Below, piece by piece: positions 17,164 through 41,598 of a stretch of DNA of 46,028 bases. A model generated the notes under the pieces. The model worked only from the letters and a program-made list of their open reading frames with translations, did not search any database and had not been told where the DNA came from. The position numbers and the translations under genes were made by a program. Positions within the stretch are counted from its first letter, which is position 1. Each line of letters begins with the position of its first letter. Origin of the DNA: Candidatus Undinarchaeota archaeon (GTDB lineage: Archaea > Undinarchaeota > Undinarchaeia > Undinarchaeales > UBA543); NCBI GenBank assembly GCA_964636545.1, contig CAZWSR010000006.1:1-46028 (forward strand), given 5' to 3'.

Positions 17164-17493
17164 ATGAAAAAACTATTGATAGCAATATTGGTTTTCACTT
17201 GTCTTGTAGTGGTTCCTCAGCTTGTAATTGGGCTGGAATCAGACAACTTAACAGAAAATCAAACAAATGCAATGAATGAAATCAAAACAACTGTTGGAAG
17301 CATAACTTTATTCATCCGACTGATTGGCGGAGCAGTTGGAACTCTTGTTTTAACTGCTGGCGGAGTAATGTTCATGACTGCTGGAGAAAAACCAGAGCGA
17401 AAAGAGCAAGCAAAGCAGATTCTGACAATGGGCGTTATTGGTTTAGTGATAATTCTAATTGCACCAGCTGTTGTGACATTTATTATTGGATGA
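17164..17493 (+). CDS. TrbC/VirB2-like pilin
   Basis: Signal peptide plus two hydrophobic helices separated by a charged loop (AGEKPERKEQAK), then GVIGLVII. Confidence 0.7.
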   Translation: MKKLLIAILVFTCLVVVPQLVIGLESDNLTENQTNAMNEIKTTVGSITLFIRLIGGAVGTLVLTAGGVMFMTAGEKPERKEQAKQILTMGVIGLVIILIAPAVVTFIIG

Positions 17494-18149
17494 AACTGAA
17501 AATATTGATTGCGTCAGTGCTAATTGGAATGCTTTTACAAGTTTCATTAGCAAGTGCAGTTGGAACTAGTGGAGGAACAACTGGAGGATTTGTTGGCGGA
17601 CCGCCAATGAGTGGAGGAGGTAGCAGTTGCGATTGTCCAGATGCTGGAGAAATTGCAGATACAGTTATTGGTAAAATAAAAGAAGAAACAAAAACAGAAA
17701 TCCCCCAAACAATTGATTACTCAGAATTAGAAAAACCAATAGAAAAAATTAAGGAAAAAATCAATATAACAACTTTTTCTGGAAAAGCTGAAGAAATAAT
17801 AGGCCAGGGCCAAGAATTATTAGATACACCACTTACAGAAGCTCCAGCTGGAATAGGCTGGCTTCTTGACAAACTCAAATATGTTGGAATAGATATGTCA
17901 ATTTTGACTTACAGAGAAGCAAGGCAAGTTGGTTCTTGTGCTGTGATTTCAGCTGGTGGATTATGGGATTATCTTTCAACACTTCAAGATTGTGTGTCAA
18001 ATGTTATTGATGCAAAACTTGCAAAAGAAGCTCCAGAGAGACTTGCGCGAGAACAACAAGAAAAAAATATTGAATCAGCATATGAAGCAACTGTAATAAT
18101 TTCTAAAGAACTTGTATCAAATAACACAGCTTCATTATTTGGGTGGTAA
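17490..18149 (+). CDS. Secreted hypothetical protein in the T4SS-like cluster
   Basis: Signal peptide and Gly-rich segment; ATGA coupling to the pilin gene. Confidence 0.6.
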   Translation: MKLKILIASVLIGMLLQVSLASAVGTSGGTTGGFVGGPPMSGGGSSCDCPDAGEIADTVIGKIKEETKTEIPQTIDYSELEKPIEKIKEKINITTFSGKAEEIIGQGQELLDTPLTEAPAGIGWLLDKLKYVGIDMSILTYREARQVGSCAVISAGGLWDYLSTLQDCVSNVIDAKLAKEAPERLAREQQEKNIESAYEATVIISKELVSNNTASLFGW

Positions 18150-18150
18150 A

Positions 18151-18876
18151 ATGAGAACTGTTTTTTCCTTATACAAAATGTGTTTGGCGGTTGTGTTAGT
18201 AACACTAATTCCGTTTCTAAGCTTTTTTGCACTTCGCTTGCTAATGTCTGGTTTCAGCACTCCTGAAAAACGAGCACAAATAAAAGAATCATTAACAGGT
18301 TTTGTAACTTTCCTAATCGCAGTTCCAGTTGCTTATTTAGCATATGGAATTCTTGTTAAATTTTCTGGATTAATTTCACTTTATTTGCTTGGTTCATCAT
18401 TTTCAATTACAGGACTTACGAATTTTTCAGGCACGTTGATAAGCTTGCTATCTAGTGAAACACTTGTTGGAGTTTACAATACAGCAACGTTGTTTGCAAT
18501 GATAACAATTTCAATGCAGAGAATCTTACTGGTTTTGGGCGCTGTCCTTTTGCCAGTTTCATTAGCATTTGTTTTTCTTTCATCTGGTTCACTAAAAAAT
18601 CTGGGAAATTCATTATTGATGTTTTTCAGTATGATAATTTTTCTTCCAGTAATTGATTCATTAATTTTCCAATGTGCTGAACTCGCTATTCCAGTTGCTG
18701 AAAGTGCAGAATTCTTGGTTTTATCATCTTACTGGCTTGTTGCACTTGTAAATGTGCTTGTATTTTTCGCTGCATTCAGTATTTCAAAATCTGGATCTGG
18801 GGTTAAAGTTGTTAGAGGAGTTATTGAACTTGTGAAAAAGGAGGTACAATGTCTTACGAAATCCCACAAGCTTTGA
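18151..18876 (+). CDS. Polytopic membrane protein, VirB6/TrbL-like
   Basis: About six TMs; RILLVLGAVLLPVSLA resembles the VirB6 core; gene context. Confidence 0.5.
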   Translation: MRTVFSLYKMCLAVVLVTLIPFLSFFALRLLMSGFSTPEKRAQIKESLTGFVTFLIAVPVAYLAYGILVKFSGLISLYLLGSSFSITGLTNFSGTLISLLSSETLVGVYNTATLFAMITISMQRILLVLGAVLLPVSLAFVFLSSGSLKNLGNSLLMFFSMIIFLPVIDSLIFQCAELAIPVAESAEFLVLSSYWLVALVNVLVFFAAFSISKSGSGVKVVRGVIELVKKEVQCLTKSHKL

Positions 18877-19694
18877 AATATGAAGAAAAGGTGATTTTCG
18901 GGCTTACAATGAAACAGCTTGCTTATCTTGGAACAGCTGGACTATTGAGTGCAATTATTTTCAAAACACAATTTTCAATTTTTCTGAAAATTCCAGTTTG
19001 CTTATTACTGGTTTCGCTTGCAGGAACAATGGCATTTCTTAAATTAGACTCACGAATAGCAGATATGTTTAATTTTTACAAGAAAAAACAAAAACTTGGT
19101 TATTTTGATAAAGAACTTGGAAAACTAATACAAGTAAAAAGTGTTTCAGAAAATTGTATTTTACTTAAGGACAAATCACTAGTTGGAATTTTACAAGTTA
19201 GACCAACAAATTTTTCAATAAAATCAAAAAACGACAAAAACGCAATAATAAAAAATTTCCAGCAGTTTCTGAACTCTCTTGATTTTCCAATACAAATTCT
19301 TGTGCGAACTGTAAACGCCAATATTGATTTTTACATTGAACATTTAAGAACTTCAGTAAAAAAACAAGTGGAAAAGCGTAAGAATACTGGGCTTGAGCGG
19401 CTTTTCAATAATTATGTTGAGTTTTTGGAAGAATATTTGAAAGAAAATGCAGTGAAAAATAAATTGTTTTATGTTATTCTGAGGAGCAAAGAGCAGTCAG
19501 AAATTGAAACTCGACTAGATTTGTGCAGAGATGGTCTTGAAAAATGCGGATTAGCTTCAAAACAATTGAAAACTGGAGAGTTGATTAACCTGCTTTCAAG
19601 TTTTTTTGGATGCAATGTCAGAGTTGGCGATAATTATCTTTCTCCAATAACAATTTTCAAACATCCCGCTCAACAAAAAAATCAGCAATCTTAA
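18849..19694 (+). CDS. PrgI (VirB3-like) fused to a TraC/VirB4-associated domain
   Basis: YEIPQALKYEEKVIFGLTMKQL (PrgI-like), two TMs, then PTNFSIKS...FLNSLDFPIQI. No Walker A motif. Confidence 0.75.
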   Translation: MSYEIPQALKYEEKVIFGLTMKQLAYLGTAGLLSAIIFKTQFSIFLKIPVCLLLVSLAGTMAFLKLDSRIADMFNFYKKKQKLGYFDKELGKLIQVKSVSENCILLKDKSLVGILQVRPTNFSIKSKNDKNAIIKNFQQFLNSLDFPIQILVRTVNANIDFYIEHLRTSVKKQVEKRKNTGLERLFNNYVEFLEEYLKENAVKNKLFYVILRSKEQSEIETRLDLCRDGLEKCGLASKQLKTGELINLLSSFFGCNVRVGDNYLSPITIFKHPAQQKNQQS

Positions 19695-31834: not shown

Positions 31835-32491
31835 TTAACCAAGTGACGCCTCCTTCTTTTTTGCTAATTTGCCTTTAATTTTCTTTAATCGTGAAAAGTC
31901 CTCTCTTTCCATTTCATCCAAACGCATTCTAATGAATGTGCTTGTGTTTTTCATTCTTGGAATAACAATATACTCAAGTGCATTTACACGTCTTTTTGTT
32001 TTCTCAACTTCAGTTGCCAACATCTCAATTGTTTTCTCAATCTCAGCCATTTGCACAACAAGCGAAAGTGCACTGTCAAATTGGCCAGCTGCTTCATCCA
32101 AACTTGCTGAAGTTGTAATTGGACTGTAACCGCGGTTTCCAAGATTCCTCTCATCTTCTTCCAAAGCAATTTCAGGAACTTTTATCCCAATAATATTCTT
32201 GGTTTCAAATTTCGCATTTGCAATCTCGCGAACTGCCATTGACGCACTCTTGACTTCAAGCGGACCCATAATTGCTTTGGCTTTCACCAAATCCATATAG
32301 GCCTGTTTGAAATGCTTTTCAACATCATCCCGCAAAGTAGAGCCTTGCTTGATAATTTCCAGGAACTTCATAATCAATGCATCGCGCTTTTCTTTTAGGA
32401 GTTTGTATCCTTTGTCAGCTAGCTTGATCTTTTTCCTGAGCTTTATCAGCTCCATGCGGGTCGGGTTTATTCCCGATATTATGTCGGTCAT
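31835..32491 (-). CDS. atpD: A-type ATP synthase subunit D
   Basis: PTRMEL, LLKEKRDAL and KTKRRVNALE. Confidence 0.96.
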   Translation of the reverse strand: MTDIISGINPTRMELIKLRKKIKLADKGYKLLKEKRDALIMKFLEIIKQGSTLRDDVEKHFKQAYMDLVKAKAIMGPLEVKSASMAVREIANAKFETKNIIGIKVPEIALEEDERNLGNRGYSPITTSASLDEAAGQFDSALSLVVQMAEIEKTIEMLATEVEKTKRRVNALEYIVIPRMKNTSTFIRMRLDEMEREDFSRLKKIKGKLAKKKEASLG

Positions 32492-32494
32492 TTG

Positions 32495-32572
32495 TTTGTC
32501 CTATTGGTTAAGGTATGAGCCCTCGGCCTTCAGCTGTCAGGTCCTGACTGCTGAGGGCTGACTGCTGACACC
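32495..32572 (-). repeat. Heptamer palindrome element (nnTCAGC/GCTGAnn type) plus AACCAATAGGACAAAC anchor
   Basis: Its reverse complement is nearly identical to 45545-45625. Confidence 0.92.
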
Positions 32573-33951
32573 TATTCTTTCAAATATTTCTCAATCTGAG
32601 CTGGTTTCAGTCGCTTTAGCTCTTCTTTAGGTAATATCTTGAACATATCCCAGCAAATTCCAAGAGTGGTTTCAATACTGCGGTCTTCATCCTTGCCCTG
32701 AGTAACAAAACGCTTCTCAAATTCTTGTGAGAATTTTAGGAACGCCTTATCTCGGTCAGACAAAGCTTCTTCACCAATAACAGCAACCAAGTCCTGCAAG
32801 CTTCTTCCTTCAGCATAGCCAGCATATCCCTGGTTTGAAACACCTGAATGGTCTTCTCTGGTCTTACCTTCGCCAATACCCTTGTTCATCAAACGAGACA
32901 AGCAAGGAAGCACATCAACTGGAGGGAAAACACCTTTCTTGTGCAAATCCCTTGAAAGAACAATCTGTCCTTCTGTAATGTACCCAGTAAGATCAGGAAT
33001 TGGGTGTGTTATGTCGTCCTGAGGCATGGAAAGAATTGGAAGCTGTGTAATTGAACCTTTTTTACCTTCAATTTTTCCAGCTCGCTCATACAATGAAGCC
33101 AAATCAGTGTACATGTATCCAGGATAACCACGTCTTCCAGGAACTTCTTCTCGAGCAGCTGAAATTTCTCGCAATGCTTCGCAGTAGTTTGTCATGTCGG
33201 TCAAGATAACAAGAACATGCATACCTTTCTCAAATGCAAGATATTCTGCAGCTGTAAGTGCAGCTCTTGGTGTAATGATTCTCTCAATTGTTGGATCATT
33301 TGCCAAATTAACAAACATCAATACTTTCTCAAGTGCGCCAGATTTCTCAAAGTCCTCTTTGAAAAATGCAGCTTCTTCAAAAGTAATTCCCATTGCAGCA
33401 AAAATTACAGCAAAGTCCTCTTTTGAACCAAGCACTTTTGCTTGCCTTGCAATCTGCGCAGCAAGTTCATTGTGCGGAAGTCCAGAACCTGAGAAAATCG
33501 GAAGTTTCTGTCCTCGAACAAGTGTATTCATCCCATCAATTGTGGAAATACCTGTCTGAATGAAATCCTCTGGATATTCTCGAGCAGTTGGGTTTATTGG
33601 AGCACCATTGATGTCAATGAATTTCTCAGCAACAATCTTTGGACCGCCATCAAGTGGTTCGCCTCGTGAGTTGAAAACACGACCAAGCATGTCTTTTGAA
33701 ACCGGAAGCATAACACCTTTTCCAGTGAATCTGGTGCTTGTCTTGTCAGTATCAATTCCACGAGTTCCTTCGAAAACCTGCACAATTGCAGTTTCTCCAG
33801 CAACCTCAAGAACCTGTCCGTATCTCTTTTCCTTTTCAGGTGTCTTTATTTCCACAAGCTCGTTGTATGTTGCGCCTTCTACGCCGTCAACAACAATCAG
33901 CGGACCGCTGACTTCTTTTACTGTTGAATATTCCTTGTTTTTTTCACTCAT
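32572..33951 (-). CDS. atpB: A-type ATP synthase subunit B
   Basis: [24 protein letters not shown] and [15 protein letters not shown]. Confidence 0.97.
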
Positions 33952-35725
33952 TTGACTCTACCCCCGTAACTATTTTTTCACGCTGCGCTAATTTCTTCAA
34001 CCCCTCTTCAAATTTGTGCTTTACATCACGAATCTTTGCATCAACCTTACTTTCTTCTAAATATTTCAGGCCAGCAATATCTGCTGTAACAGGAATTTTT
34101 GAAATGTCGTTAGTACTAATTCCTGAATCAATTGACTCATTTGACTTGTGATGTTTCCACAAAATCAAATTCATTAAGTTGAACTGTTTCTTCGGACTGG
34201 TATAGGTATCCACAGCATCATACGCATTTTGTTGTAGGAAATCCTCCCTCAAAGACCGTGCAGTTTCCATAAGAAGTTTGTCTTGTTCTGGAAGCGCATC
34301 TGGTCCAACCAAACGTACAATTTCCTGAAGCTCAGCTTCTCTTTGAAGAATACCCATTGACTCTTTCTTTAACTCAAGCCAATTTCCAACTTCCTTTGTC
34401 CACCAGCTTGAAACATTATCATCATACAGAGAGTATGAAGTTAGCCAGTTAATACTTGGGAAGTGGCGTCTGTTTGCAAGATCAGCATCAAGTGCCCAGA
34501 AAACCTTACAGATACGAAGTGTGTTCTGCGTAACTGGTTCAGAAAAGTCACCACCAGGTGGACTGACAGCTCCAATAACTGAAACAGAACCGCGATTTTT
34601 CTCGTCAGTTCCAATTGGCTGTACAACACCAGCTCGCTCATAAAACTGAGCAATTCTTGGTGCAAGGTAAGCAGGATATCCTTCCTCACCAGGCATCTCT
34701 TCCAAACGGGAACTGATTTCACGCATTGCCTCTGCCCATCTTGACGTTGAGTCAGCCATTAGCGCAACATTGTAACCCATATCACGGTAATACTCTGCAA
34801 TTGTAATTCCAGTGTATACTGAAGCTTCACGAGCTGCTACAGGCATGTTTGAAGTGTTTGCAATCAGCACAGTTCTCTCAAGAAGTGCTTTTCCAGTTCT
34901 TGGATCTTTCAAGTGCGGGAATTCTTTCAGTACTTCAGTCATCTCATTTCCACGCTCTCCGCATCCAATATAAACAACAATATCTGCATCAGACCATTTT
35001 GCAAGCTGTTGCTGCATCACAGTTTTTCCAGCACCAAATGGCCCTGGAATTGCACTTGCCCCACCTTTTGCAACTGGGAAAAAAGTATCAACAATTCTTT
35101 GTCCAGTAATAAGAGGAGTTGTTGGTCTGAATTTTTCACTATAAGGTCGAGGAATACGAACAGGCCATTTCTGTGCCATTTGCACTGGCTTTCCGTCAAT
35201 CTCAGCAATTGTGTGATGAACAGTGTATTTGCCATCAGATTCAATCTTGGTTACTTCCCCACTCATTTTTGGAGGAACCATAATCTTGTTCACAACAACT
35301 TCAGACTCCTTGACTGTTCCGAGAATATCTCCGCCTTTCACTTTGTCGCCTTTCTTGACCTGGGGTTTGAAATCCCAAGTCTTTTTGGTGTTAAGTGTTG
35401 GCTCATCAATTCCACGAGTAATGTAAGAACCGGCCTTTTTCATAATATTTTCTAGAGGTCTGGCTATTCCATCATAAGTGGTGCCGATAAGTCCTGGCCC
35501 GAGCTCTACAGATAGTGGCATGCCTGTGTTTTCAACTGGCTGTCCTGGCCCTATACCTGCAGTTTCCTCGTAAACCTGCACTGTCGCCCTGTCTCCATTA
35601 AGCTGAATAACTTCGCCAAGAAGCCCTTCTGCTCCAACTTTAACAACATCGTACATCTTGGAACCTTTCATTCCGTCTGCCACGATAACTGGTCCTGCAA
35701 TCCTAACAATTTTTCCTTTTATCAC
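33944..35725 (-). CDS. atpA: A-type ATP synthase subunit A (no intein)
   Basis: [17 protein letters not shown] and [10 protein letters not shown]. Confidence 0.97.
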
Positions 35726-36054
35726 TGTATTTCACCTTCCTTTTTAGAAGTAATATCAACGCCGACAGCCCTGCGGATCATTTCCTTTATGTTCTTCTTC
35801 GCATGGCCTGTACTGCCGGTCTGGTCAGGCACCTCAATAACAACTGGGTGCGGTTTGCTTCTCAGCTTGCTGATTTCCTCACTTACATAGCTGGCATGAT
35901 TTTCTGAAATTATGATTAGGTCGTACTCTTTCTGAAGTGCCTGATTAAGTACATTAGATGTGTCTGCAACTTTCTCAACAGGATAAGCTGCAGTAACTCC
36001 TGCAAGACGGAATCCCATCACCATATCTTTGTCACCAATAACACAGATGTTCAT
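35722..36054 (-). CDS. atpF: A-type ATP synthase subunit F
   Basis: [15 protein letters not shown] and IRRAVGVDI. Confidence 0.95.
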
Positions 36055-37205
36055 ACTGCACCCCCGGTTTCAATATCAATTCCACTATGGTTGAAACTTG
36101 AAAACATCCTAATTTTTCGTGCATCTACTTCCTTGCCAGTTATCAAGTAAAGCGCAGGTCCAAGACCAAGGCCGTTCTTGACAGATAGCTGTTTTGCAGT
36201 TTGCTCATAATGTGCATCAAGCTTGTTCTCAATTTGATAAAGTGAGCCAGTATCTTTGAAAGTAGTTGAAACCTCTGCAAGAACTTCAGAATAGTTAGTT
36301 CCTTCAAGTTGTGAAAGTATTTCATCAATTGTTTCTGCTTTTGCAATTGTCTTCAGTTTGTCTTTTGATAAATTATAGGACGCATTAATTATGAAATCAT
36401 CAATGTTTTCAACACTGCTTCCAGCAGCGCGCATTCTTAGTAATGTTTTCAAATTAAGAGTATCGATTTTTGTTCCAAGCAAAAGGTTCACTGCAACCAT
36501 GTTCTTTTCTTTTGAAAGTGCGATTTTTCCATGAGCTTTCTCATAAACATACTTATCAATTGCAAGTTCAAGTGGAAGGAGAGATTTCTGCTCTTCAACC
36601 TGTTGCATTGCTTCAGAAACAGTTTTTCCATATTCTGTGCTTTCAAGTTCAGAAACTGCTTCCTCAATTGTTTTTGATTCAATAAGTGCTTTGAGAATGT
36701 GTTCTTTTAATGTGCCAATAGGAATTACAAGATCAGCTCTTGCTTCAACAGGGAACTTGTCATCTTTCAAGCACCTGAAAACCATTTTAATGTTTTTAGC
36801 ATCGTAAATCTTGAGAAGGTCTTTTATTACATTTTTAACTTCACTAGGGACTGTTCTTACAACTTTACTGTAAATATCTGAAGTGTGTTGATTTAATGCT
36901 TTCTCAAGTCCATCCTCGCACGCAGGATCTGTCATTTTTGTCAGATAGGCACCATAATCTGTATTTTCAAGAGTACTTACGCAATCAATTTGCGTTTTTG
37001 AGTTTTTTAGGTCTTCAAGTTTTTGTTTTTTAAGTAAACCAGCTTCAAGTGCACGTATTTTCGCATTAGTATACATGTAAGGAGCAAGATCAACAACATT
37101 CATTATAACTGGAATCATCAATATTACAAATCCTGCAACAGCTACAGCTGCGATAATTGCCACCACTGGTTCGCTCATGACAAGCGCATTTATTGACCAA
37201 TCCAT
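36051..37205 (-). CDS. atpC: A-type ATP synthase subunit C with an N-terminal hydrophobic extension
   Basis: Y.YTNAKIRALE..LL and ID..NLKTLLR; operon position. Confidence 0.9.
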   Translation of the reverse strand: MDWSINALVMSEPVVAIIAAVAVAGFVILMIPVIMNVVDLAPYMYTNAKIRALEAGLLKKQKLEDLKNSKTQIDCVSTLENTDYGAYLTKMTDPACEDGLEKALNQHTSDIYSKVVRTVPSEVKNVIKDLLKIYDAKNIKMVFRCLKDDKFPVEARADLVIPIGTLKEHILKALIESKTIEEAVSELESTEYGKTVSEAMQQVEEQKSLLPLELAIDKYVYEKAHGKIALSKEKNMVAVNLLLGTKIDTLNLKTLLRMRAAGSSVENIDDFIINASYNLSKDKLKTIAKAETIDEILSQLEGTNYSEVLAEVSTTFKDTGSLYQIENKLDAHYEQTAKQLSVKNGLGLGPALYLITGKEVDARKIRMFSSFNHSGIDIETGGAV

Positions 37206-37206
37206 T

Positions 37207-37788
37207 TTATTTGAATAGTATTTCTGCTACTTTACCTCGAATTACTTCAGATTCTCGCTCAAGTATTCTTTCAATACTGTTATCGATTCTCAAGTTTCCT
37301 GAACTATTTTCAATAACAACACCGCCAAGCAACTCAATTGCGTCGCCGGTTTTAACACTAAGTTCTTTTGCAAGTTCTTTTCCAAGTGCGTGGTTCTCTT
37401 TGTTGAACAGAAGGGTGCTTCCTTCCCCAATTGCCTTAATCCCATCTTCTGACAAAAGTTTCACAGCTTTTTTGTATCTGCCAGTTCCATCATTGCTCAT
37501 TCTCTTTAGATGAGTTTCAGCTTTAGAAAGTGCATTTGAAATAAGCTTATCCTTGCTCTGAAGAGTCAAGTTGTGCGCCTCAAGGTTTGATGAAGAGCGA
37601 ATTCTCTGCTCCTCTCGTGCAGCTGCTTTCTTTCCACTATCCTGAATTGCTTTTTTCTCAGCATGTGTTTTTTCATCTGCTGATTTCTTGACTGCAGCTG
37701 CCTGTTCCTTAGCGTCGCTAATAATTTTATTAGCTTCGTTAATGGCGTCTTTCATTATTTTTTGATTGATTTTTGTTACTCCTTCCAT
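37207..37788 (-). CDS. atpE: A-type ATP synthase subunit E
   Basis: Coiled coil followed by GGVVI...IDNSIE. Confidence 0.9.
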   Translation of the reverse strand: MEGVTKINQKIMKDAINEANKIISDAKEQAAAVKKSADEKTHAEKKAIQDSGKKAAAREEQRIRSSSNLEAHNLTLQSKDKLISNALSKAETHLKRMSNDGTGRYKKAVKLLSEDGIKAIGEGSTLLFNKENHALGKELAKELSVKTGDAIELLGGVVIENSSGNLRIDNSIERILERESEVIRGKVAEILFK

Positions 37789-37793
37789 TTTAA

Positions 37794-39254
37794 TCACCCG
37801 AAGAATCCTACTCCAAGCATAATCAGTATTGCAATAAGCAATCCGAAAATAGCATATGTTTCAGGGATAACAGAGAGTACAAGACCCTTTCCTGTTGAAT
37901 CCTTGTTCTTTGCAGTAGCACCAATAGCTCCACCAGATACAATTCCCTGACCAATAGCTGAAAGCCCTGCAAGACCTACAGCACAGCCAGCTGCAATTGA
38001 AGCCATTCCAGCAACACTTGAGATTGCGCCAGTTTTAGCAGCACCCACAAGTCCTACTGATGCTAATATGAGAATTCCGATAATGAATCCGTACAATGCC
38101 TGAGTTTCTGGAAGCACAGAGAAAACCATGCTCTTTCCAAAGAGTTCACTCTTTTCAGAAACTGCGCCGATTCCAGCACCTGCTGCAATTCCCTGTCCAA
38201 TAGCTGACAAACCAGCTACACCAACAGCGATTCCAGCACCTACTCCAGCAAGTCCAACTGTTTCAGATATTCCAATTCCACCTTTTGCACCAAGAATTCC
38301 TGCACCAAGCAAAATCAAAATTGCAATGAGCATTCCGTAAATTGCCTGAGTTTCTGGGAGTACAGAGAAAACCATTCCCTTACCCATCATCTTGTCATTT
38401 TCTGCAACAGTTGCAACAGCTGAACCAGCCGCAATTCCCTGTCCAATAGCTGAAAGACCAGCTACACCAACAGCGATTCCAGCACCAACAGCAGCAATTC
38501 CTGCACCCATCTTAAGTGAGCCAACAATTGTACCACCGATTAATCCAGTTGAAACCAATATCAAAATTGCTACAATGAAACCATACAATGCCTGAGTTTC
38601 AGGAAGCACAGAGAAAACCATACCTTTTCCAAACATTTCCTCTTTTTCAGTAACTGCACCAATTGCAGCTCCTGCAGCTATACCTTGACCAAGACCTGAT
38701 AATCCAGCTACTCCAACAGCAATACCTGCGCCAAGTGCTGCAAGACCAATTGGAAGTGGAAGCTGAGTTGTTGCAGTTCCAATAATTCCTGCGCCTAGCA
38801 AGATAAGAACTGCAATAAGCATTCCGTAAATAGCCTGAGTTTCTGGGAGTACAGAGAAAACCATTCCCTTACCCATCATCTTGTCATTTTCTGTTACTGC
38901 ACCAATGGCAGCGCCAGCAGCGATTCCTTGACCAATAGCTGACAAACCTGCGAAACCAACAGCAATTCCTGCACCAACACATGCTAGTGAAACACCAACT
39001 GAAATTTCAGCAACAGCTGTGCCAACAATTCCAGTTCCCATAAGAATTAAGATTGCAATAAGGAAACCATAAATTCCCTGTGTTTGCGGAAGCGCCTGGA
39101 AAATCAATGCAGTTGAGAATTTATCAGGATCTTCTGCAATAGCACCTGCTCCTGCAGCTCCTGCAATACCTGCACCAATTCCGCTTGCAAGACCGGCTAC
39201 GCCGACTGCAATACCTGCTCCGACTGCTGCAAGTGCAACTTCTACACCTACCAT
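37794..39254 (-). CDS. atpK: A-type ATP synthase proteolipid (c/K) with six fused hairpins
   Basis: Six ~81-aa repeats with PQTQ, PETQ x4 and PETY. Confidence 0.95.
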   Translation of the reverse strand: MVGVEVALAAVGAGIAVGVAGLASGIGAGIAGAAGAGAIAEDPDKFSTALIFQALPQTQGIYGFLIAILILMGTGIVGTAVAEISVGVSLACVGAGIAVGFAGLSAIGQGIAAGAAIGAVTENDKMMGKGMVFSVLPETQAIYGMLIAVLILLGAGIIGTATTQLPLPIGLAALGAGIAVGVAGLSGLGQGIAAGAAIGAVTEKEEMFGKGMVFSVLPETQALYGFIVAILILVSTGLIGGTIVGSLKMGAGIAAVGAGIAVGVAGLSAIGQGIAAGSAVATVAENDKMMGKGMVFSVLPETQAIYGMLIAILILLGAGILGAKGGIGISETVGLAGVGAGIAVGVAGLSAIGQGIAAGAGIGAVSEKSELFGKSMVFSVLPETQALYGFIIGILILASVGLVGAAKTGAISSVAGMASIAAGCAVGLAGLSAIGQGIVSGGAIGATAKNKDSTGKGLVLSVIPETYAIFGLLIAILIMLGVGFFG

Positions 39255-39303
39255 TTTAATTCACCTCTGCAGTTTTTGTTCATTGTTGAGATTTTTGTAG
39301 TTT

Positions 39304-41274
39304 TCATTGTTTTACCTCAAGGATAGTATAATCGCGTTTGACTGAGAATGGCTCGTATTTTCGGCCACCACCAGAGTAGAATTTACTGAAAAATTCCACA
39401 TATTGAAGACGAAGTGCGTGCACAAAAGCTCCGAGTGCATTCATTGCAAAACTGAAAATGTGCCCACCAAGGAAAATTATAGCTGCCAAAAGTATTCCGA
39501 TATACGGCACACCAATAACCATTCCAGCAAGCAAGTTCATTGTCATTGCAATTCCACCTGTTGCAAGGCAGAGCGCAAGCAAACGACTGAAAGACATGAC
39601 ATCTCCGAAGAAACCAGTTATATCAAACAACCCAATTGCCCCATTATATTTGACAAGTATTGCAAGCGAAAGTCCAGCAAGTATGTATGCTGCGTAATTT
39701 AGTGAATGTGGAAGCCAAGTTATTCCAAGCATTGGAGCAAGCATTATGAATGCTGCAAACTGAATGAAGAACCAAATTATCTGGCTGTGAACCATTTCAA
39801 TTTTTTTGCCGAGTTTGAAATTATTAACTGCACCAAGAATCAAACCAAGGTTCAGGTGTGCGATTCCAACAAATAATGACAATTTCAAGATAACAAGTGG
39901 GTTTGTAAGTGGATCAACCCAAGGTGCTATTTGTGCTGGCGTCAAACCCCAAATATAGTTTGGAAGATCTCCAAGATAACTGCCAGTTAATACTCCAAAG
40001 AACATTGTTGATAAACCAACAGCAGTCACAATTATTCCAAATTCCTTGAAACTTTGTTTGTGTTTTCCGAGTTTTAGAAGTAAGAATAATCCACCAAGGA
40101 AAAGCAGGAATCCATAAACAAAATCAGTAAGCATAAGCCCGGCGTAGAGAATAAGTAATGGAGTAAGGATTGTTGTCGGGTCAATTTCGTTGTACTTTGG
40201 TACTGAGTACATTTCAGTTAACATTTCAAATGGTTTTGCAATCCATTTGTTTTTGAGAAGAACTGGAACATTATCGTCTTCAGCTGGAGCTTCAATTTTA
40301 ATATGACAACAACTATGAGAAGATTCTGTAATTGCTTTTACAACATCATCTGCTTTTTTAGTTGGAACCCATCCATCCATAATAAATGTCTTTTTAGTAC
40401 CTGCAATTTTGCCAAGTGCATCCATTCGCTCTTTTTCAATAACTAATTGTTCCCGAGTAATCTGAAGTTTCTTATGCCATTTTTCATATAATTTACTAAG
40501 CTGTTCCTTTTTGGTTTCAGTATCTTTTGCAATTTCTTTGACTTTTGCATCAAGATCCTTTATGTTCTTGTCAATTGCAGGAATTTCAAATTCTTCAAAA
40601 CCAAATGTTCTAAGAACAAGGTTGATTGGCTCCATTTCCTCTTTCATTACAGTGATTGTAATAATACTTGATTCAGCATCCAGTTTTCCAGAAATAATGT
40701 GTGCGTCTGGGCTTTTTTGCTTAACATCTCTTTTTAAATCTGCAAGTTTTTCTGGCTGAATTTTTCCTGCAAAAGTATGAACTCGACTTGAGACACCAAC
40801 ATGAGTATAATCAACATCAATTTTGTCCAACATTTCCTTAACTTTTTTAAGATTTGTTAATTGGTAATCTTGGGTTTGTAGTGTTTCCAAACTTGAACTT
40901 AGTGCACCAGCTTTGATATCAAGTTCTTTGATAATCTCACTAGTTTCCTTAAGAAGAGTGTCTGGATTATCATCTGATACCTTTACTTTCTTTTCTTCAT
41001 CAGAAAGACCTGCAAATAAACCTTCTTTCTTGGTTTGAGTGCTTTTTAAAATATCAGTAATTCTGTCAAGTTTTATTAAAAGTGGTACAACTTCTCGGTT
41101 TTCAGGAGTATGAACTGCTCCTTGCAAAAATGTTTTCCATTCTGGTTGTTCAAGAAAAATATTTGCGTCTTCCAGCTGGATGACCCCTGAATTATGAAGT
41201 GCTCTAATAACATCGTCCCTGTATTTGCTCAGGGCAATGAACTTGAGCTTCTGCATCCGTGCTGGTCTGAACAT
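39304..41274 (-). CDS. atpI: A-type ATP synthase subunit I (a)
   Basis: EIDPT, SFSRLLAL and HALRLQYVEFF. Confidence 0.96.
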   Translation of the reverse strand: MFRPARMQKLKFIALSKYRDDVIRALHNSGVIQLEDANIFLEQPEWKTFLQGAVHTPENREVVPLLIKLDRITDILKSTQTKKEGLFAGLSDEEKKVKVSDDNPDTLLKETSEIIKELDIKAGALSSSLETLQTQDYQLTNLKKVKEMLDKIDVDYTHVGVSSRVHTFAGKIQPEKLADLKRDVKQKSPDAHIISGKLDAESSIITITVMKEEMEPINLVLRTFGFEEFEIPAIDKNIKDLDAKVKEIAKDTETKKEQLSKLYEKWHKKLQITREQLVIEKERMDALGKIAGTKKTFIMDGWVPTKKADDVVKAITESSHSCCHIKIEAPAEDDNVPVLLKNKWIAKPFEMLTEMYSVPKYNEIDPTTILTPLLILYAGLMLTDFVYGFLLFLGGLFLLLKLGKHKQSFKEFGIIVTAVGLSTMFFGVLTGSYLGDLPNYIWGLTPAQIAPWVDPLTNPLVILKLSLFVGIAHLNLGLILGAVNNFKLGKKIEMVHSQIIWFFIQFAAFIMLAPMLGITWLPHSLNYAAYILAGLSLAILVKYNGAIGLFDITGFFGDVMSFSRLLALCLATGGIAMTMNLLAGMVIGVPYIGILLAAIIFLGGHIFSFAMNALGAFVHALRLQYVEFFSKFYSGGGRKYEPFSVKRDYTILEVKQ

Positions 41275-41280
41275 TGCTTT

Positions 41281-41598
41281 TTAGTCCTCTCTAAGTATGT
41301 GTTTGACAACTGCTTCAACTGCAGTATCCATGTGTTTTTCGCACTTTTTCTCCTCGTGCTCAATATCTTTCTTTGCTTTCTGAATAACTTGAGATGCTTC
41401 TTTTTCAGAACTATCTTTTGATTTTGCAATTAGAGCATTCGCTTCTTCATCAGCTTTTTTAAGAATTGTTTCACGATGCATAGAACTGTCTTTTGCAGCC
41501 TTTTCAAGAAGCTTTTCTGCTTCTTTCTGGGCTTTTTCCACAAGTGCGTCTGCCTTGTGTTCTGCTTCTTTTATTTGAACTAGTGCTTGCTTTGGCAT
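41281..41598 (-). CDS. atpH: A-type ATP synthase subunit H (G-like peripheral stalk)
   Basis: IKEAE..A coiled coil; first gene of the operon. Confidence 0.85.
   Translation of the reverse strand: MPKQALVQIKEAEHKADALVEKAQKEAEKLLEKAAKDSSMHRETILKKADEEANALIAKSKDSSEKEASQVIQKAKKDIEHEEKKCEKHMDTAVEAVVKHILRED

Follow-up and report, generated by a model that had tools for sequence, protein, structure and literature searches.

An open reading frame in the window, by which is meant the whole 46,028-nt stretch of DNA that was analysed, almost certainly encodes a true K (c, proteolipid) subunit of an A-type ATP synthase with six fused hairpins and five ion sites. The explanation that best accounts for the data, and which we consider probable as a whole, is a K subunit capped at both ends, with five Na+-type sites shared between neighboring hairpins and a ring likely made of two copies. 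Ions per turn set the ion cost per ATP; in ordinary rings this number follows from the count of single hairpins in the assembly and can hardly be predicted from sequence. With six hairpins and five sites per chain, a ring can have only 12, 18, or 24 hairpins, carrying 10, 15, or 20 ions.

The 486-aa ORF holds six stretches of PF00137 (ATP-synt_C; E 2.9e-97, 319 bits vs a cut-off of 24), and a six-frame search of the genome returned six separate matches, each with E ≤ 3.6e-16, in one open frame. The length and the hairpin number that the earlier note had read from the letters are confirmed. The NCBIfam equivalogs for ‘V-type ATP synthase subunit K’ were matched at 622 bits (NF011483, cut-off 188) and 498 bits (NF004913, cut-off 211). 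The AlphaFold2 monomer (mean pLDDT 91.3, pTM 0.91) is all-helical, and its twelve transmembrane-length helical spans bear out the 12 transmembrane segments predicted before.

The gene is part of a complete A-type ATP synthase operon ordered H-I-K-E-C-F-A-B-D (31835-41598, all on the minus strand), in which it adjoins subunit I (Table 1). The claim that ring size has to be a multiple of six holds. In the genome (82.8% complete), no c/K gene other than this one was found, and its product would serve the A-type ATP synthase/ATPase of this small-genome marine archaeon, the named group closest to it being ‘Candidatus Undinarchaeales’, as the only rotor (K/c) subunit detected. At the K loci fetched, the start motif of subunit C downstream of K had no match in 13 of 60, Methanomicrobiales records included; the flanks extended only 1500 nt and the motif is narrow, so this has no bearing on an N-terminal extension there.

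Table 1. Features of the operon and of the K gene; positions are those of the window
Feature	Position	Strand	Remarks
Subunit H-like peripheral stalk	41281..41598	-	V-ATPase_G_2 and ATP-synt_B Pfam matches, weak, below cut-off
Subunit I (a-type stator)	39304..41274	-	V_ATPase_I
Shine-Dalgarno-like GAGGTGA	39261..39267	-	Ends 6 nt ahead of K ATG; read from sequence
K (c, proteolipid) subunit gene, A-type ATP synthase	37794..39254	-	486 aa, six fused hairpins
Hairpin 1 (residues 1-81), N-cap	39012..39254	-	PQTQ 39078-39089; Ala28 for helix-1 Gln; Gln57 (39084-39086) for helix-2 Glu; T58, Q59, Y62 kept, predicted to be given to the hairpin 2 site
Hairpin 2 (residues 82-162), full, type a	38769..39011	-	PETQ 38835-38846; Q109, E138 (38841-38843), T139, Q140, Y143
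Hairpin 3 (residues 163-244), full, type b	38523..38768	-	PETQ 38592-38603; Q190, E219 (38598-38600), T220, Q221, Y224
Hairpin 4 (residues 245-326), full, type a	38277..38522	-	75% identity to hairpin 2; PETQ 38346-38357; Q272, E301 (38352-38354), T302, Q303, Y306
Hairpin 5 (residues 327-408), full, type b	38031..38276	-	70% identity to hairpin 3; PETQ 38100-38111; Q354, E383 (38106-38108), T384, Q385, Y388
Hairpin 6 (residues 409-486), C-cap	37797..38030	-	PETY 37854-37865; Q436, E465 (37860-37862) kept; Y467 at +2, F470 at +5, predicted to make no donation to a following site
61-nt exact repeat, first copy	38833..38893	-	489-nt offset, one two-hairpin (a-b) unit
61-nt exact repeat, second copy	38344..38404	-	
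Subunit E	37207..37797	-	GTG start; 4-nt overlap with K stop codon
Subunit C (AC39/d type)	36051..37205	-	Hydrophobic N-terminal extension of ~45 aa
Subunit F	35722..36054	-	
Catalytic subunit A	33944..35725	-	
Subunit B	32572..33951	-	
Central stalk subunit D	31835..32491	-	

Hairpins, probable shared ion sites, and the junction between copies

The six hairpins are 42-75% identical to one another in protein and 53-76% in DNA, and the chain would be laid out as an N-cap, four full hairpins in the order a-b-a-b (a duplicated two-hairpin unit), and a C-cap. The PQTQ, PETQ, and PETY motifs lie exactly where the earlier note had placed them, and GQG occurs in hairpins 2-6 as it had said (residues 108, 189, 271, 353, and 435), the equivalent spot in hairpin 1 being GAG. 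The buried helix-2 carboxylate that marks the family is a Glu in hairpins 2-6 (E138, E219, E301, E383, and E465) and is replaced by Gln57 in hairpin 1. Along the chain, the five site columns read AQTQY in the first hairpin, QETQY in each of the four full ones, and QETYF in the last.

Among relatives with a solved structure, the best match both by sequence (E 2.6e-17) and by fold (TM 0.75 over 151 columns) is NtpK (PDB 2bl2), the rotor of the V-type Na+-ATPase of E. hirae. PGTQGLY in its hairpin 1 is aligned to PQTQGIY in our H1, and its hairpin 2 (VETYAIL) resembles our H6 (PETYAIF) in the E-T-Y pattern, a pairing made by motif as the alignment covers query residues 11-155 only. The two hairpins of NtpK match our N-cap and C-cap, and its one site is built from both; the ligands of that site are L61, T64, Q65, Q110, and E139. 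Ten NtpK copies, each with two hairpins and one site, make a 20-hairpin ring, whereas our chain has four full hairpins inserted between the caps.

Homology to NtpK and covariation lead us to infer that each ion site is common to two neighbors, the Glu and the helix-1 Gln coming from hairpin n+1 and T (+1), Q (+2), and Y (+5) from hairpin n. Read across neighboring hairpins in this way, the Na+ motif (helix-1 Q/E plus E-[STQ]-[STQ]-x-x-Y) is complete at five sites and absent at H6|H1', in keeping with the Q...ET signature noted earlier, and five complete Na+-type sites would lie inside the chain, H1|H2 through H5|H6. Hairpin 1 is without Glu and Gln and hairpin 6 without the donor Q and Y, which would leave a single dead site at the H6|H1' junction; that the dead site marks the junction between protomers is very probable. 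PETY is more than a variant site. In hairpin 6, Q has given way to Y at +2 and Y to F at +5, and both substitutions would fall in the dead site formed with hairpin 1 of the following copy; the Glu of hairpin 6 would complete the site with hairpin 5.

Strong conservation of the site residues is seen across 33 six-hairpin sequences with 50-92% identity to our K. Invariant among them are Q57/T58/Q59/Y62, Q109/E138/T139/Q140/Y143, Q190/E219/Q221/Y224, Q272/E301/T302/Q303/Y306, Q354/E383/T384/Q385/Y388, and Q436/E465/T466, and T220 is kept in at least 90%. Covariation points the same way as the proposed sharing, since the preceding hairpin has a degenerate TQxxY for all 41 internal hairpins that lack Glu compared with 98 of 1229 that have it, counts that overstate independence because the sequences are related. 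The degenerate forms ahead of Glu-less hairpins comprise several different substitutions (M, HS, HA, FF, and N).

Number of copies per ring

Two K copies per ring are the arrangement we lean toward, judging from fusions, single-chain relatives, and a structure model. Two copies would close into a 12-hairpin ring passing 10 Na+ per turn, or ~3.3 per ATP, and the ion/ATP ratio would then be fixed by gene architecture. The K (L) ring of the T. thermophilus V/A-ATPase is H+-coupled. As an A/V-type ring of 12 hairpins (PDB 6qum and others; 11 entries with 132 chains of 74 aa, 12 in each), it has the size proposed for two copies of ours, but it consists of twelve separate single hairpins, none fused, and has no dead site.

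With three copies of the same subunit, the ring would instead have 18 hairpins and pass 15 ions per turn, or 5 per ATP; with four copies it would have 24 hairpins and 20 ions. We regard these larger rings as unlikely, although E. hirae K10 rings contain 20 hairpins (5 entries, with 50 chains of 156 aa), from which it follows that larger A/V-type rings exist, that A/V-type stators and C/d sockets can take them, and that 18 or 24 hairpins are possible; a high ion/ATP ratio would also suit ATP synthesis at low driving force. Natural genes speak for the smaller ring. P0131, P0141, and P0144 are 6+6 tandem fusions with halves 76-78% identical and QETFF|VQTQY kept mid-chain, amounting to 12 hairpins and 10 sites. 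Complete single-chain relatives end at 12-13 hairpins with 8-12 complete sites (12 hairpins in 14 and 13 in 11 of the 25 long chains classed as complete from cap to cap), and 18 hairpins occur in none of 37 long proteins. A genome of the same order carries a 978-aa, 12-hairpin K.

The ring of two copies was also modeled, as had been proposed earlier, and the dimer closed with a score of 0.71 vs a best of 0.00 in three controls; only two copies were offered, so this is no test against three. The same mark was attained by 20 of 30 proteins whose solved structures are pairs of one chain and by 1 of 23 whose structures are single chains. Agreement of contacts among the dimer runs was at least 96% and partner pLDDT at least 84. 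The modeled interface includes H1 (residues 2-77) and H6 (413-482) of both copies, which suggests a closed ring of 12 hairpins, and F470 contacts residue 60 of the next copy in the model. The pass may stem from likeness to solved c-rings. In a Foldseek search, no solved rotor chain aligned beyond ~200 columns. The earlier note had weighed two copies against three, and the 6+6 fusions, the chains of 12-13 hairpins, and the closed dimer model together favor two, each being compatible with three.

A chain that may make the ring alone is known from M. kandleri, whose 13-hairpin K has been predicted to work as a monomeric rotor (Lolkema and Boekema 2003, cited by PMC2359735 and PMC3639240). It is like ours in being a multi-hairpin single polypeptide with Na+-type sites (mostly QETQY in P0148). 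The Methanopyrus proteins P0145-P0149 have 13 hairpins with Glu in all of them and no N-cap or C-cap, and this K is thought to be a whole ring by itself, whereas ours has six hairpins, the first without Glu, and must oligomerize.

Coupling ion and soundness of the assembly

Na+ specificity is predicted from the motif, which reportedly goes back to Mulkidjanian et al. 2008. That the sites bind H+ instead, or both ions, and that the enzyme may in this host run mainly as an ATP-driven ion pump and less as a synthase, strikes us as doubtful. This alternative draws on the choice of ion having been made from the motif only and on the 82.8%-complete genome, in which a membrane pyrophosphatase was found and a Mrp/complex-I type antiporter subunit, Rnf/Nqr, and a decarboxylase beta subunit were not, so that no respiratory ion-gradient source was seen, four families having been searched and absence from an incomplete genome being weak evidence. 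Against it, all five sites carry the full set of features, a helix-1 Q/E plus E[STQ][STQ]xxY, given for Na+ sites in the accessible parts of bioRxiv 10.64898/2026.10.01.756066 and PMC2359735.

Tandem repeats may be gained or lost when a metagenome is assembled, and the idea that the six-hairpin gene is such an artefact, the true gene having fewer or more hairpins, was rejected as highly improbable in view of unit divergence, same-genus genomes, repeat depth, and intact contigs. The gene does contain an exact repeat, the longest being 61 nt (Table 1), and public k=31 contigs break at it. Apart from this repeat, the level of identity among the hairpins makes repeat collapse or expansion unlikely. 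Contigs from public runs X2-X5 match the gene at 100% with no joints (the X3 and X4 pieces are nearly identical and maybe one data set), and no unit-skipping contig was found among the public contigs. In runs X2-X4, the repeat piece has a depth of 10.6-11.8 vs 3.5-5.7 for the flanks, the ~2x expected because there are two copies, and the 488-nt piece between the copies is single-copy. Two further genomes of the genus, making three with ours, have six hairpins in one frame, and so do independent clusters 91%, 89%, and 77% identical to our K; the signature is the same in all of them.

Relatives and the range of hairpin numbers

A K with six hairpins had been noted before as lacking any known characterized example. 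No description of a six-hairpin c/K subunit was found in the searchable full-text literature, though it is possibly listed in the supplement of ProAD, which according to the accessible part of PMC11738941 groups K subunits by hairpin number. Hairpin numbers of 1, 2, 3, or 13 are given in the accessible part of PMC9171764; those of bioRxiv 10.64898/2026.10.01.756066 and PMC3639240 have the number varying widely with M. kandleri as the only named case, and that of PMC3146512 contains nothing on it. The architecture itself is abundant in public data: 90 of 277 fetched protein clusters are six-hairpin K, in a histogram that is biased because it was drawn from ranked match lists. What is new is therefore an undescribed and uncharacterized form, not an unseen one.

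Chains of other lengths follow the same layout, in which k full hairpins lie between the two caps: k is 0 in E. hirae NtpK and 1 in M. jannaschii K, and relatives having 4, 5, 6, 12, and 13 hairpins conform as well. The triplicated c subunit of M. jannaschii (AhaK/AtpK; P0205, 220 aa) has the same end caps as ours, with AQTQY QETQY QETFF along the chain (no helix-1 Gln or Glu in the first hairpin; Glu, but F at both +2 and +5, in the last) and cap hairpins 63-67% identical to ours, and in both the sites equal the hairpins minus one. It has three hairpins, with one full hairpin between the caps and two sites per chain, whereas ours has six, with four between the caps and five sites. Five-hairpin relatives exist in the same order (G005, P0021, and P0022); five does not divide 12, a point against a 12-hairpin ring.

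Tentatively, fused archaeal rotor subunits may share one building rule, with N-cap, k full hairpins, C-cap, and exactly one dead site per chain junction, the internal hairpins having been amplified independently by lineage and the products fitting a ring of ~12 hairpins (chains of 2, 3, 4, 6, or 12). Were this rule true, the ion/ATP ratio would be tuned genetically by the number of junctions (dead sites), giving 6 to 11 sites in 12 hairpins, and not by ring size, and six-hairpin chains would make up a conserved and widely distributed gear that passes 10 Na+ with each turn. No positional orthology of internal hairpins was found between Undinarchaeales, Methanofollis, and Thermoplasmata (52-58% identity, in a matrix without a diagonal), and the comparison thus did not demonstrate that six-hairpin chains arose only once. 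In the long K proteins, Pfam matches to the profiles DNA_polI_exo1, SET7_N, and Speriolin_C included no stretch that was significant by itself and were taken as composition noise.

Taken with the 6+6 fusions, the chains of 2, 3, 4, 5, 6, 12, and 13 hairpins that occur in nature amount to a set of natural experiments on what fixes ring size and gearing. Of 41 genomes from the Methanogenium order, 14 carry a six-hairpin K, and cultured species are among the carriers (Methanomicrobiales such as Methanogenium and Methanocalculus), which makes this form directly testable without culturing a DPANN-type archaeon.

The K gene, its operon and the sixfold repeat

The single 486-aa protein with six fused hairpins proposed in the earlier note is borne out by an open frame of 486 codons containing six ATP-synt_C stretches (PF00137, E 2.9e-97) and by scores far over the cut-offs of the NCBIfam equivalogs "V-type ATP synthase subunit K". 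In a six-frame search of its own genome (840 kb, 39 contigs, 82.8% complete), six ATP-synt_C matches, each with E <= 3.6e-16, fall in this one frame and nowhere else. The PQTQ, four PETQ and PETY motifs lie exactly where the note placed them, and GQG is present in hairpins 2-6, as it stated, with GAG instead in hairpin 1. The K gene is part of a full A-type ATP synthase operon in the order H-like, I, K, E, C, F, A, B, D; GAGGTGA is read 6 nt upstream of its ATG, and the start of E overlaps its stop codon.

Subunit C (AC39/d type) begins with a hydrophobic, transmembrane-like extension of ~45 aa, its Pfam domain starting only at residue 47. The extension is also kept in four relatives with multi-hairpin K genes (genomes G012, G013, G006 and G005) and might be an anchor holding C in the ring lumen. 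Elsewhere in the window, genes for a T4SS_pilin-family and a PrgI-family protein enclose two ORFs matching no known family, a small cluster, perhaps a conjugation-like or cell-contact apparatus of this small-genome archaeon.

Features of the window
Feature	Position	Strand	Basis
T4SS_pilin to PrgI cluster	17164-19694	+	
T4SS_pilin-family protein	17164-17493	+	
PrgI-family protein	18849-19694	+	
Subunit D	31835-32491	-	Pfam
Subunit B	32572-33951	-	Pfam
Subunit A	33944-35725	-	Pfam
Subunit F	35722-36054	-	Pfam
Subunit C	36051-37205	-	Pfam
Subunit C extension	about 37071-37205	-	
Subunit E	37207-37797	-	Pfam
Subunit K	37794-39254	-	ORF reading, Pfam
PETY motif of K	37854-37865	-	
61-nt repeat, copy	38344-38404		
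61-nt repeat, copy	38833-38893		
PQTQ motif of K	39078-39089	-	
Subunit I	39304-41274	-	Pfam
H-like subunit	41281-41598	-	Pfam

The six hairpins are only 42-75% identical as protein and 53-76% as DNA. Tandem Repeats Finder reports periods of 246 and 489 nt, and the longest exact repeat within the gene is 61 nt. At least 20 public runs, drawn from 17 studies and bearing the label marine, seawater or hydrothermal-vent metagenome, contain the stretch 37500-39500, and at least 12 of them include half or more of its sampled words. Contigs of four runs (X2-X5; X3 and X4, whose pieces are almost the same, are perhaps not independent) match it at 100%, except for two 36-nt records with three differences each, and contain no joints, insertions or deletions over it. 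The contig pieces end at the 61-nt repeat, since k=31 contigs must break there; the repeat has a depth of 10.6-11.8 vs 3.5-5.7 in adjoining pieces, and the 488-nt piece separating its copies has single-copy depth, which fits two copies of the repeat and hence six hairpins. The other two genomes of the genus (G012 and G013) likewise encode six hairpins with an identical site signature, as do the protein clusters P0005 (91% identical), P0008 (89%, source name "Candidatus Undinarchaeales archaeon") and P0012 (77%).

Predicted ion sites within and between chains

Read in five columns (helix-1 Gln, Glu, +1, +2, +5), hairpins H1-H6 give AQTQY, QETQY, QETQY, QETQY, QETQY and QETYF. The closest solved relative is Enterococcus hirae NtpK (2bl2), whose hairpin 1 (LPGTQGLYGF) is aligned to H1 (LPQTQGIYGF) and whose hairpin 2 (MVETYAILGF) has the E-T-Y-A-I pattern in common with H6 (IPETYAIFGL). 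NtpK binds one Na+ through E139 and Q110, both in hairpin 2, and through T64, Q65 and the carbonyl of L61, which hairpin 1 supplies. By homology, we infer that each site of K combines Glu and the helix-1 Gln of hairpin n+1 with T, Q and Y of hairpin n, a geometry which yields complete sites at H1|H2 to H5|H6 and thus the five sites per chain counted earlier. The sixth site, between neighbouring chains (H6|H1'), reads as degenerate on both faces (Y467 and F470 in H6; A28 and Q57 in H1). Among 33 six-hairpin sequences that share 50-92% identity, only two of the site positions vary: T220, which at least 90% of them keep, and the helix-1 residue of H1, which is A, V or T and never Gln.

Among 277 fetched proteins, all 41 internal hairpins lacking Glu are preceded by a hairpin with a degenerate TQxxY, vs 98 of 1229 Glu-bearing hairpins, and a Glu-less hairpin is itself followed by a degenerate one just 17 times in 262; Fisher values on these counts are not real probabilities because the sequences are related. 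The degenerate partners differ (QETQM, QETHS, QETHA, QETFF, QETQN), which suggests several independent events.

The AlphaFold2 model of K is all-helical (mean pLDDT 91.3, pTM 0.91), with 2bl2_A as top Foldseek match (TM 0.75 on target). For solved rotor chains, no Foldseek alignment exceeds about 200 columns, so the six-hairpin architecture is not represented by any solved structure.

A series of multi-hairpin K subunits

Methanocaldococcus jannaschii K (P0205) reads AQTQY QETQY QETFF and two-hairpin forms VQTQY QETFF. These shared signatures place the proteins in one series: an N-cap (first hairpin, without Glu and helix-1 Gln), k full hairpins and a C-cap (last hairpin, keeping Glu and losing the +2 Q/+5 Y), where k is 0 in NtpK-like, 1 in M. 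jannaschii-like and 4 in the present protein. Of 277 clusters, 204 are complete (N-cap first, C-cap last, chain ending at the C terminus), with 2 (n = 9), 3 (n = 66), 4 (n = 4), 5 (n = 5), 6 (n = 90), 7 (n = 3), 8 (n = 1), 9 (n = 1), 12 (n = 14) or 13 (n = 11) hairpins, numbers biased by taking only the highest hits of three ranked lists, which under-represents 4- and 5-hairpin forms in particular; P0003 has 8 hairpins by profile and 9 by motif. The remaining 73 are truncated or have no caps, as in Methanopyrus (13 hairpins) and Promethearchaeota (15 hairpins). Five sites are complete in 81 of the 90 six-hairpin clusters and four in 9.

Multi-hairpin A-type K subunits are already known as a kind. 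A six-hairpin, five-site form is described in no searchable paper, the ProAD supplement, which perhaps lists hairpin numbers, lying outside the search. The earlier claim that no such form is characterised thus stands for the searchable literature; in sequence data the form is widespread. The gene belongs to a large, conserved and testable class and is no singular oddity.

Within the phylum (17 genomes searched), six hairpins occur in all three genomes of the genus, five in G005 and twelve in G006 of the same order (P0124; locus L007, G006:C2), in a single 978-aa frame reading AQTQY, ten QETQY and QETYF. G003 has fragments of 4 and 7 hairpins at contig ends, ten genomes one match each, in a short frame, and one no K match. 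Among K and its 12- and 5-hairpin relatives, the N-caps are orthologous, at 81-83% identity, and so are the C-caps, at 74-76%. Internal hairpins of all three are of two alternating types, a and b (H2 vs H4 75%, H3 vs H5 70% identical), arranged N-a-b-a-b-C in K, N-(a-b)x5-C in G006 and N-a-a-b-C in G005, so that growth proceeds in steps of two hairpins. Comparison from lineage to lineage likewise shows orthologous caps (52-69% identity). Identity among internal hairpins is higher inside one protein (75-81% for H3-H5 of Methanofollis) than from one lineage to another (52-58%), so that the six-hairpin state has either arisen independently or been homogenised.

In the order of Methanogenium marinum DSM 15558, a frame of 482-520 aa with several PF00137 matches is present in at least 14 of the 41 genomes sampled; M. 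marinum itself (G017) has, among the matches listed, six in the long frame and one single-hairpin gene. Besides this frame, the same genomes contain between one and three single-hairpin c/K genes, a pattern suggesting that each cell has several rotary ATPases, in accord with a ProAD statement on Methanomicrobiales (PMC11738941). Other carriers are, by source name, Methanofollis fontis, Methanomicrobium sp. W14, Methanocalculus taiwanensis and Methanolinea mesophila and, by record title, Methanogenium cariaci, Methanocalculus chunghsingensis and others. Six-hairpin K of Thermoplasmatota (P0029-P0074 and others) has an N-terminal PKD domain of ~130-140 aa (residues 41-126 matched in P0072), probably on the outer membrane face, an odd arrangement for a rotor ring subunit.

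The 15-hairpin Promethearchaeota (Asgard) proteins (P0154-P0157, 1108-1147 aa) have Glu in all hairpins, E-A-L-x-x-Y and no helix-1 Gln, and are therefore probably H+-type. Bacterial MAGs (Desulfobacteraceae, Desulfatiglandales, others; L036-L058, L063, L065, L071, L072) encode ~160-aa relatives of archaeal K, 48-53% identical, presumably of two-hairpin V/A-type ATPases.

Copies per ring and direction of work

A single K gene seen in the 82.8% complete genome forces, as the earlier note argued, a ring of a multiple of six hairpins. Between the two copies (12 hairpins, 10 ions) and three (18, 15) it had left side by side, the evidence leans to two, which we consider somewhat probable. Three clusters of different source, P0131, P0141 and P0144, share 85% identity and are each a 6+6 tandem (halves 76-78% identical) retaining the dead junction QETFF|VQTQY at the middle; the long chains classed as complete run to 12 or 13 hairpins, with 8-12 complete sites, and the Thermus thermophilus ring consists of 12 single hairpins. 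A model given two copies only scored 0.71 (best of 3 controls 0.00), a mark that 20 of 30 proteins attain if their solved form is a pair of one chain, against 1 of 23 if it is a single chain, although this pass may reflect likeness to complexes already solved. Contacts agreed to at least 96% between runs, with partner pLDDT of at least 84. In both copies, residues 2-77 and 413-482 take part in the interface, so that the modelled ring is closed, and F470 contacts residue 60 of the other copy. Against two copies, E. hirae rings have 20 hairpins, and five-hairpin relatives do not divide 12.

Single-chain K of 12 or 13 hairpins also occurs in DPANN-type archaea (source names Nanoarchaeota/Nanobdellota, among P0121-P0144), some with internal dead junctions (e.g., 5+4+4, 6+3+3, 5+3+4). 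With such chains there and in the window's order, Methanopyrus kandleri is not the sole candidate for a monomeric rotor.

Among four families searched, Mrp/complex-I antiporter subunits, Rnf/Nqr and decarboxylase beta subunits were not found in the 82.8% complete genome, and the only other primary ion pump found was a membrane-bound pyrophosphatase (G000:C10:2932-4860, +; 672-aa frame, E 1.8e-271). From this pattern, the enzyme may, in this host, pump Na+ at the expense of ATP.
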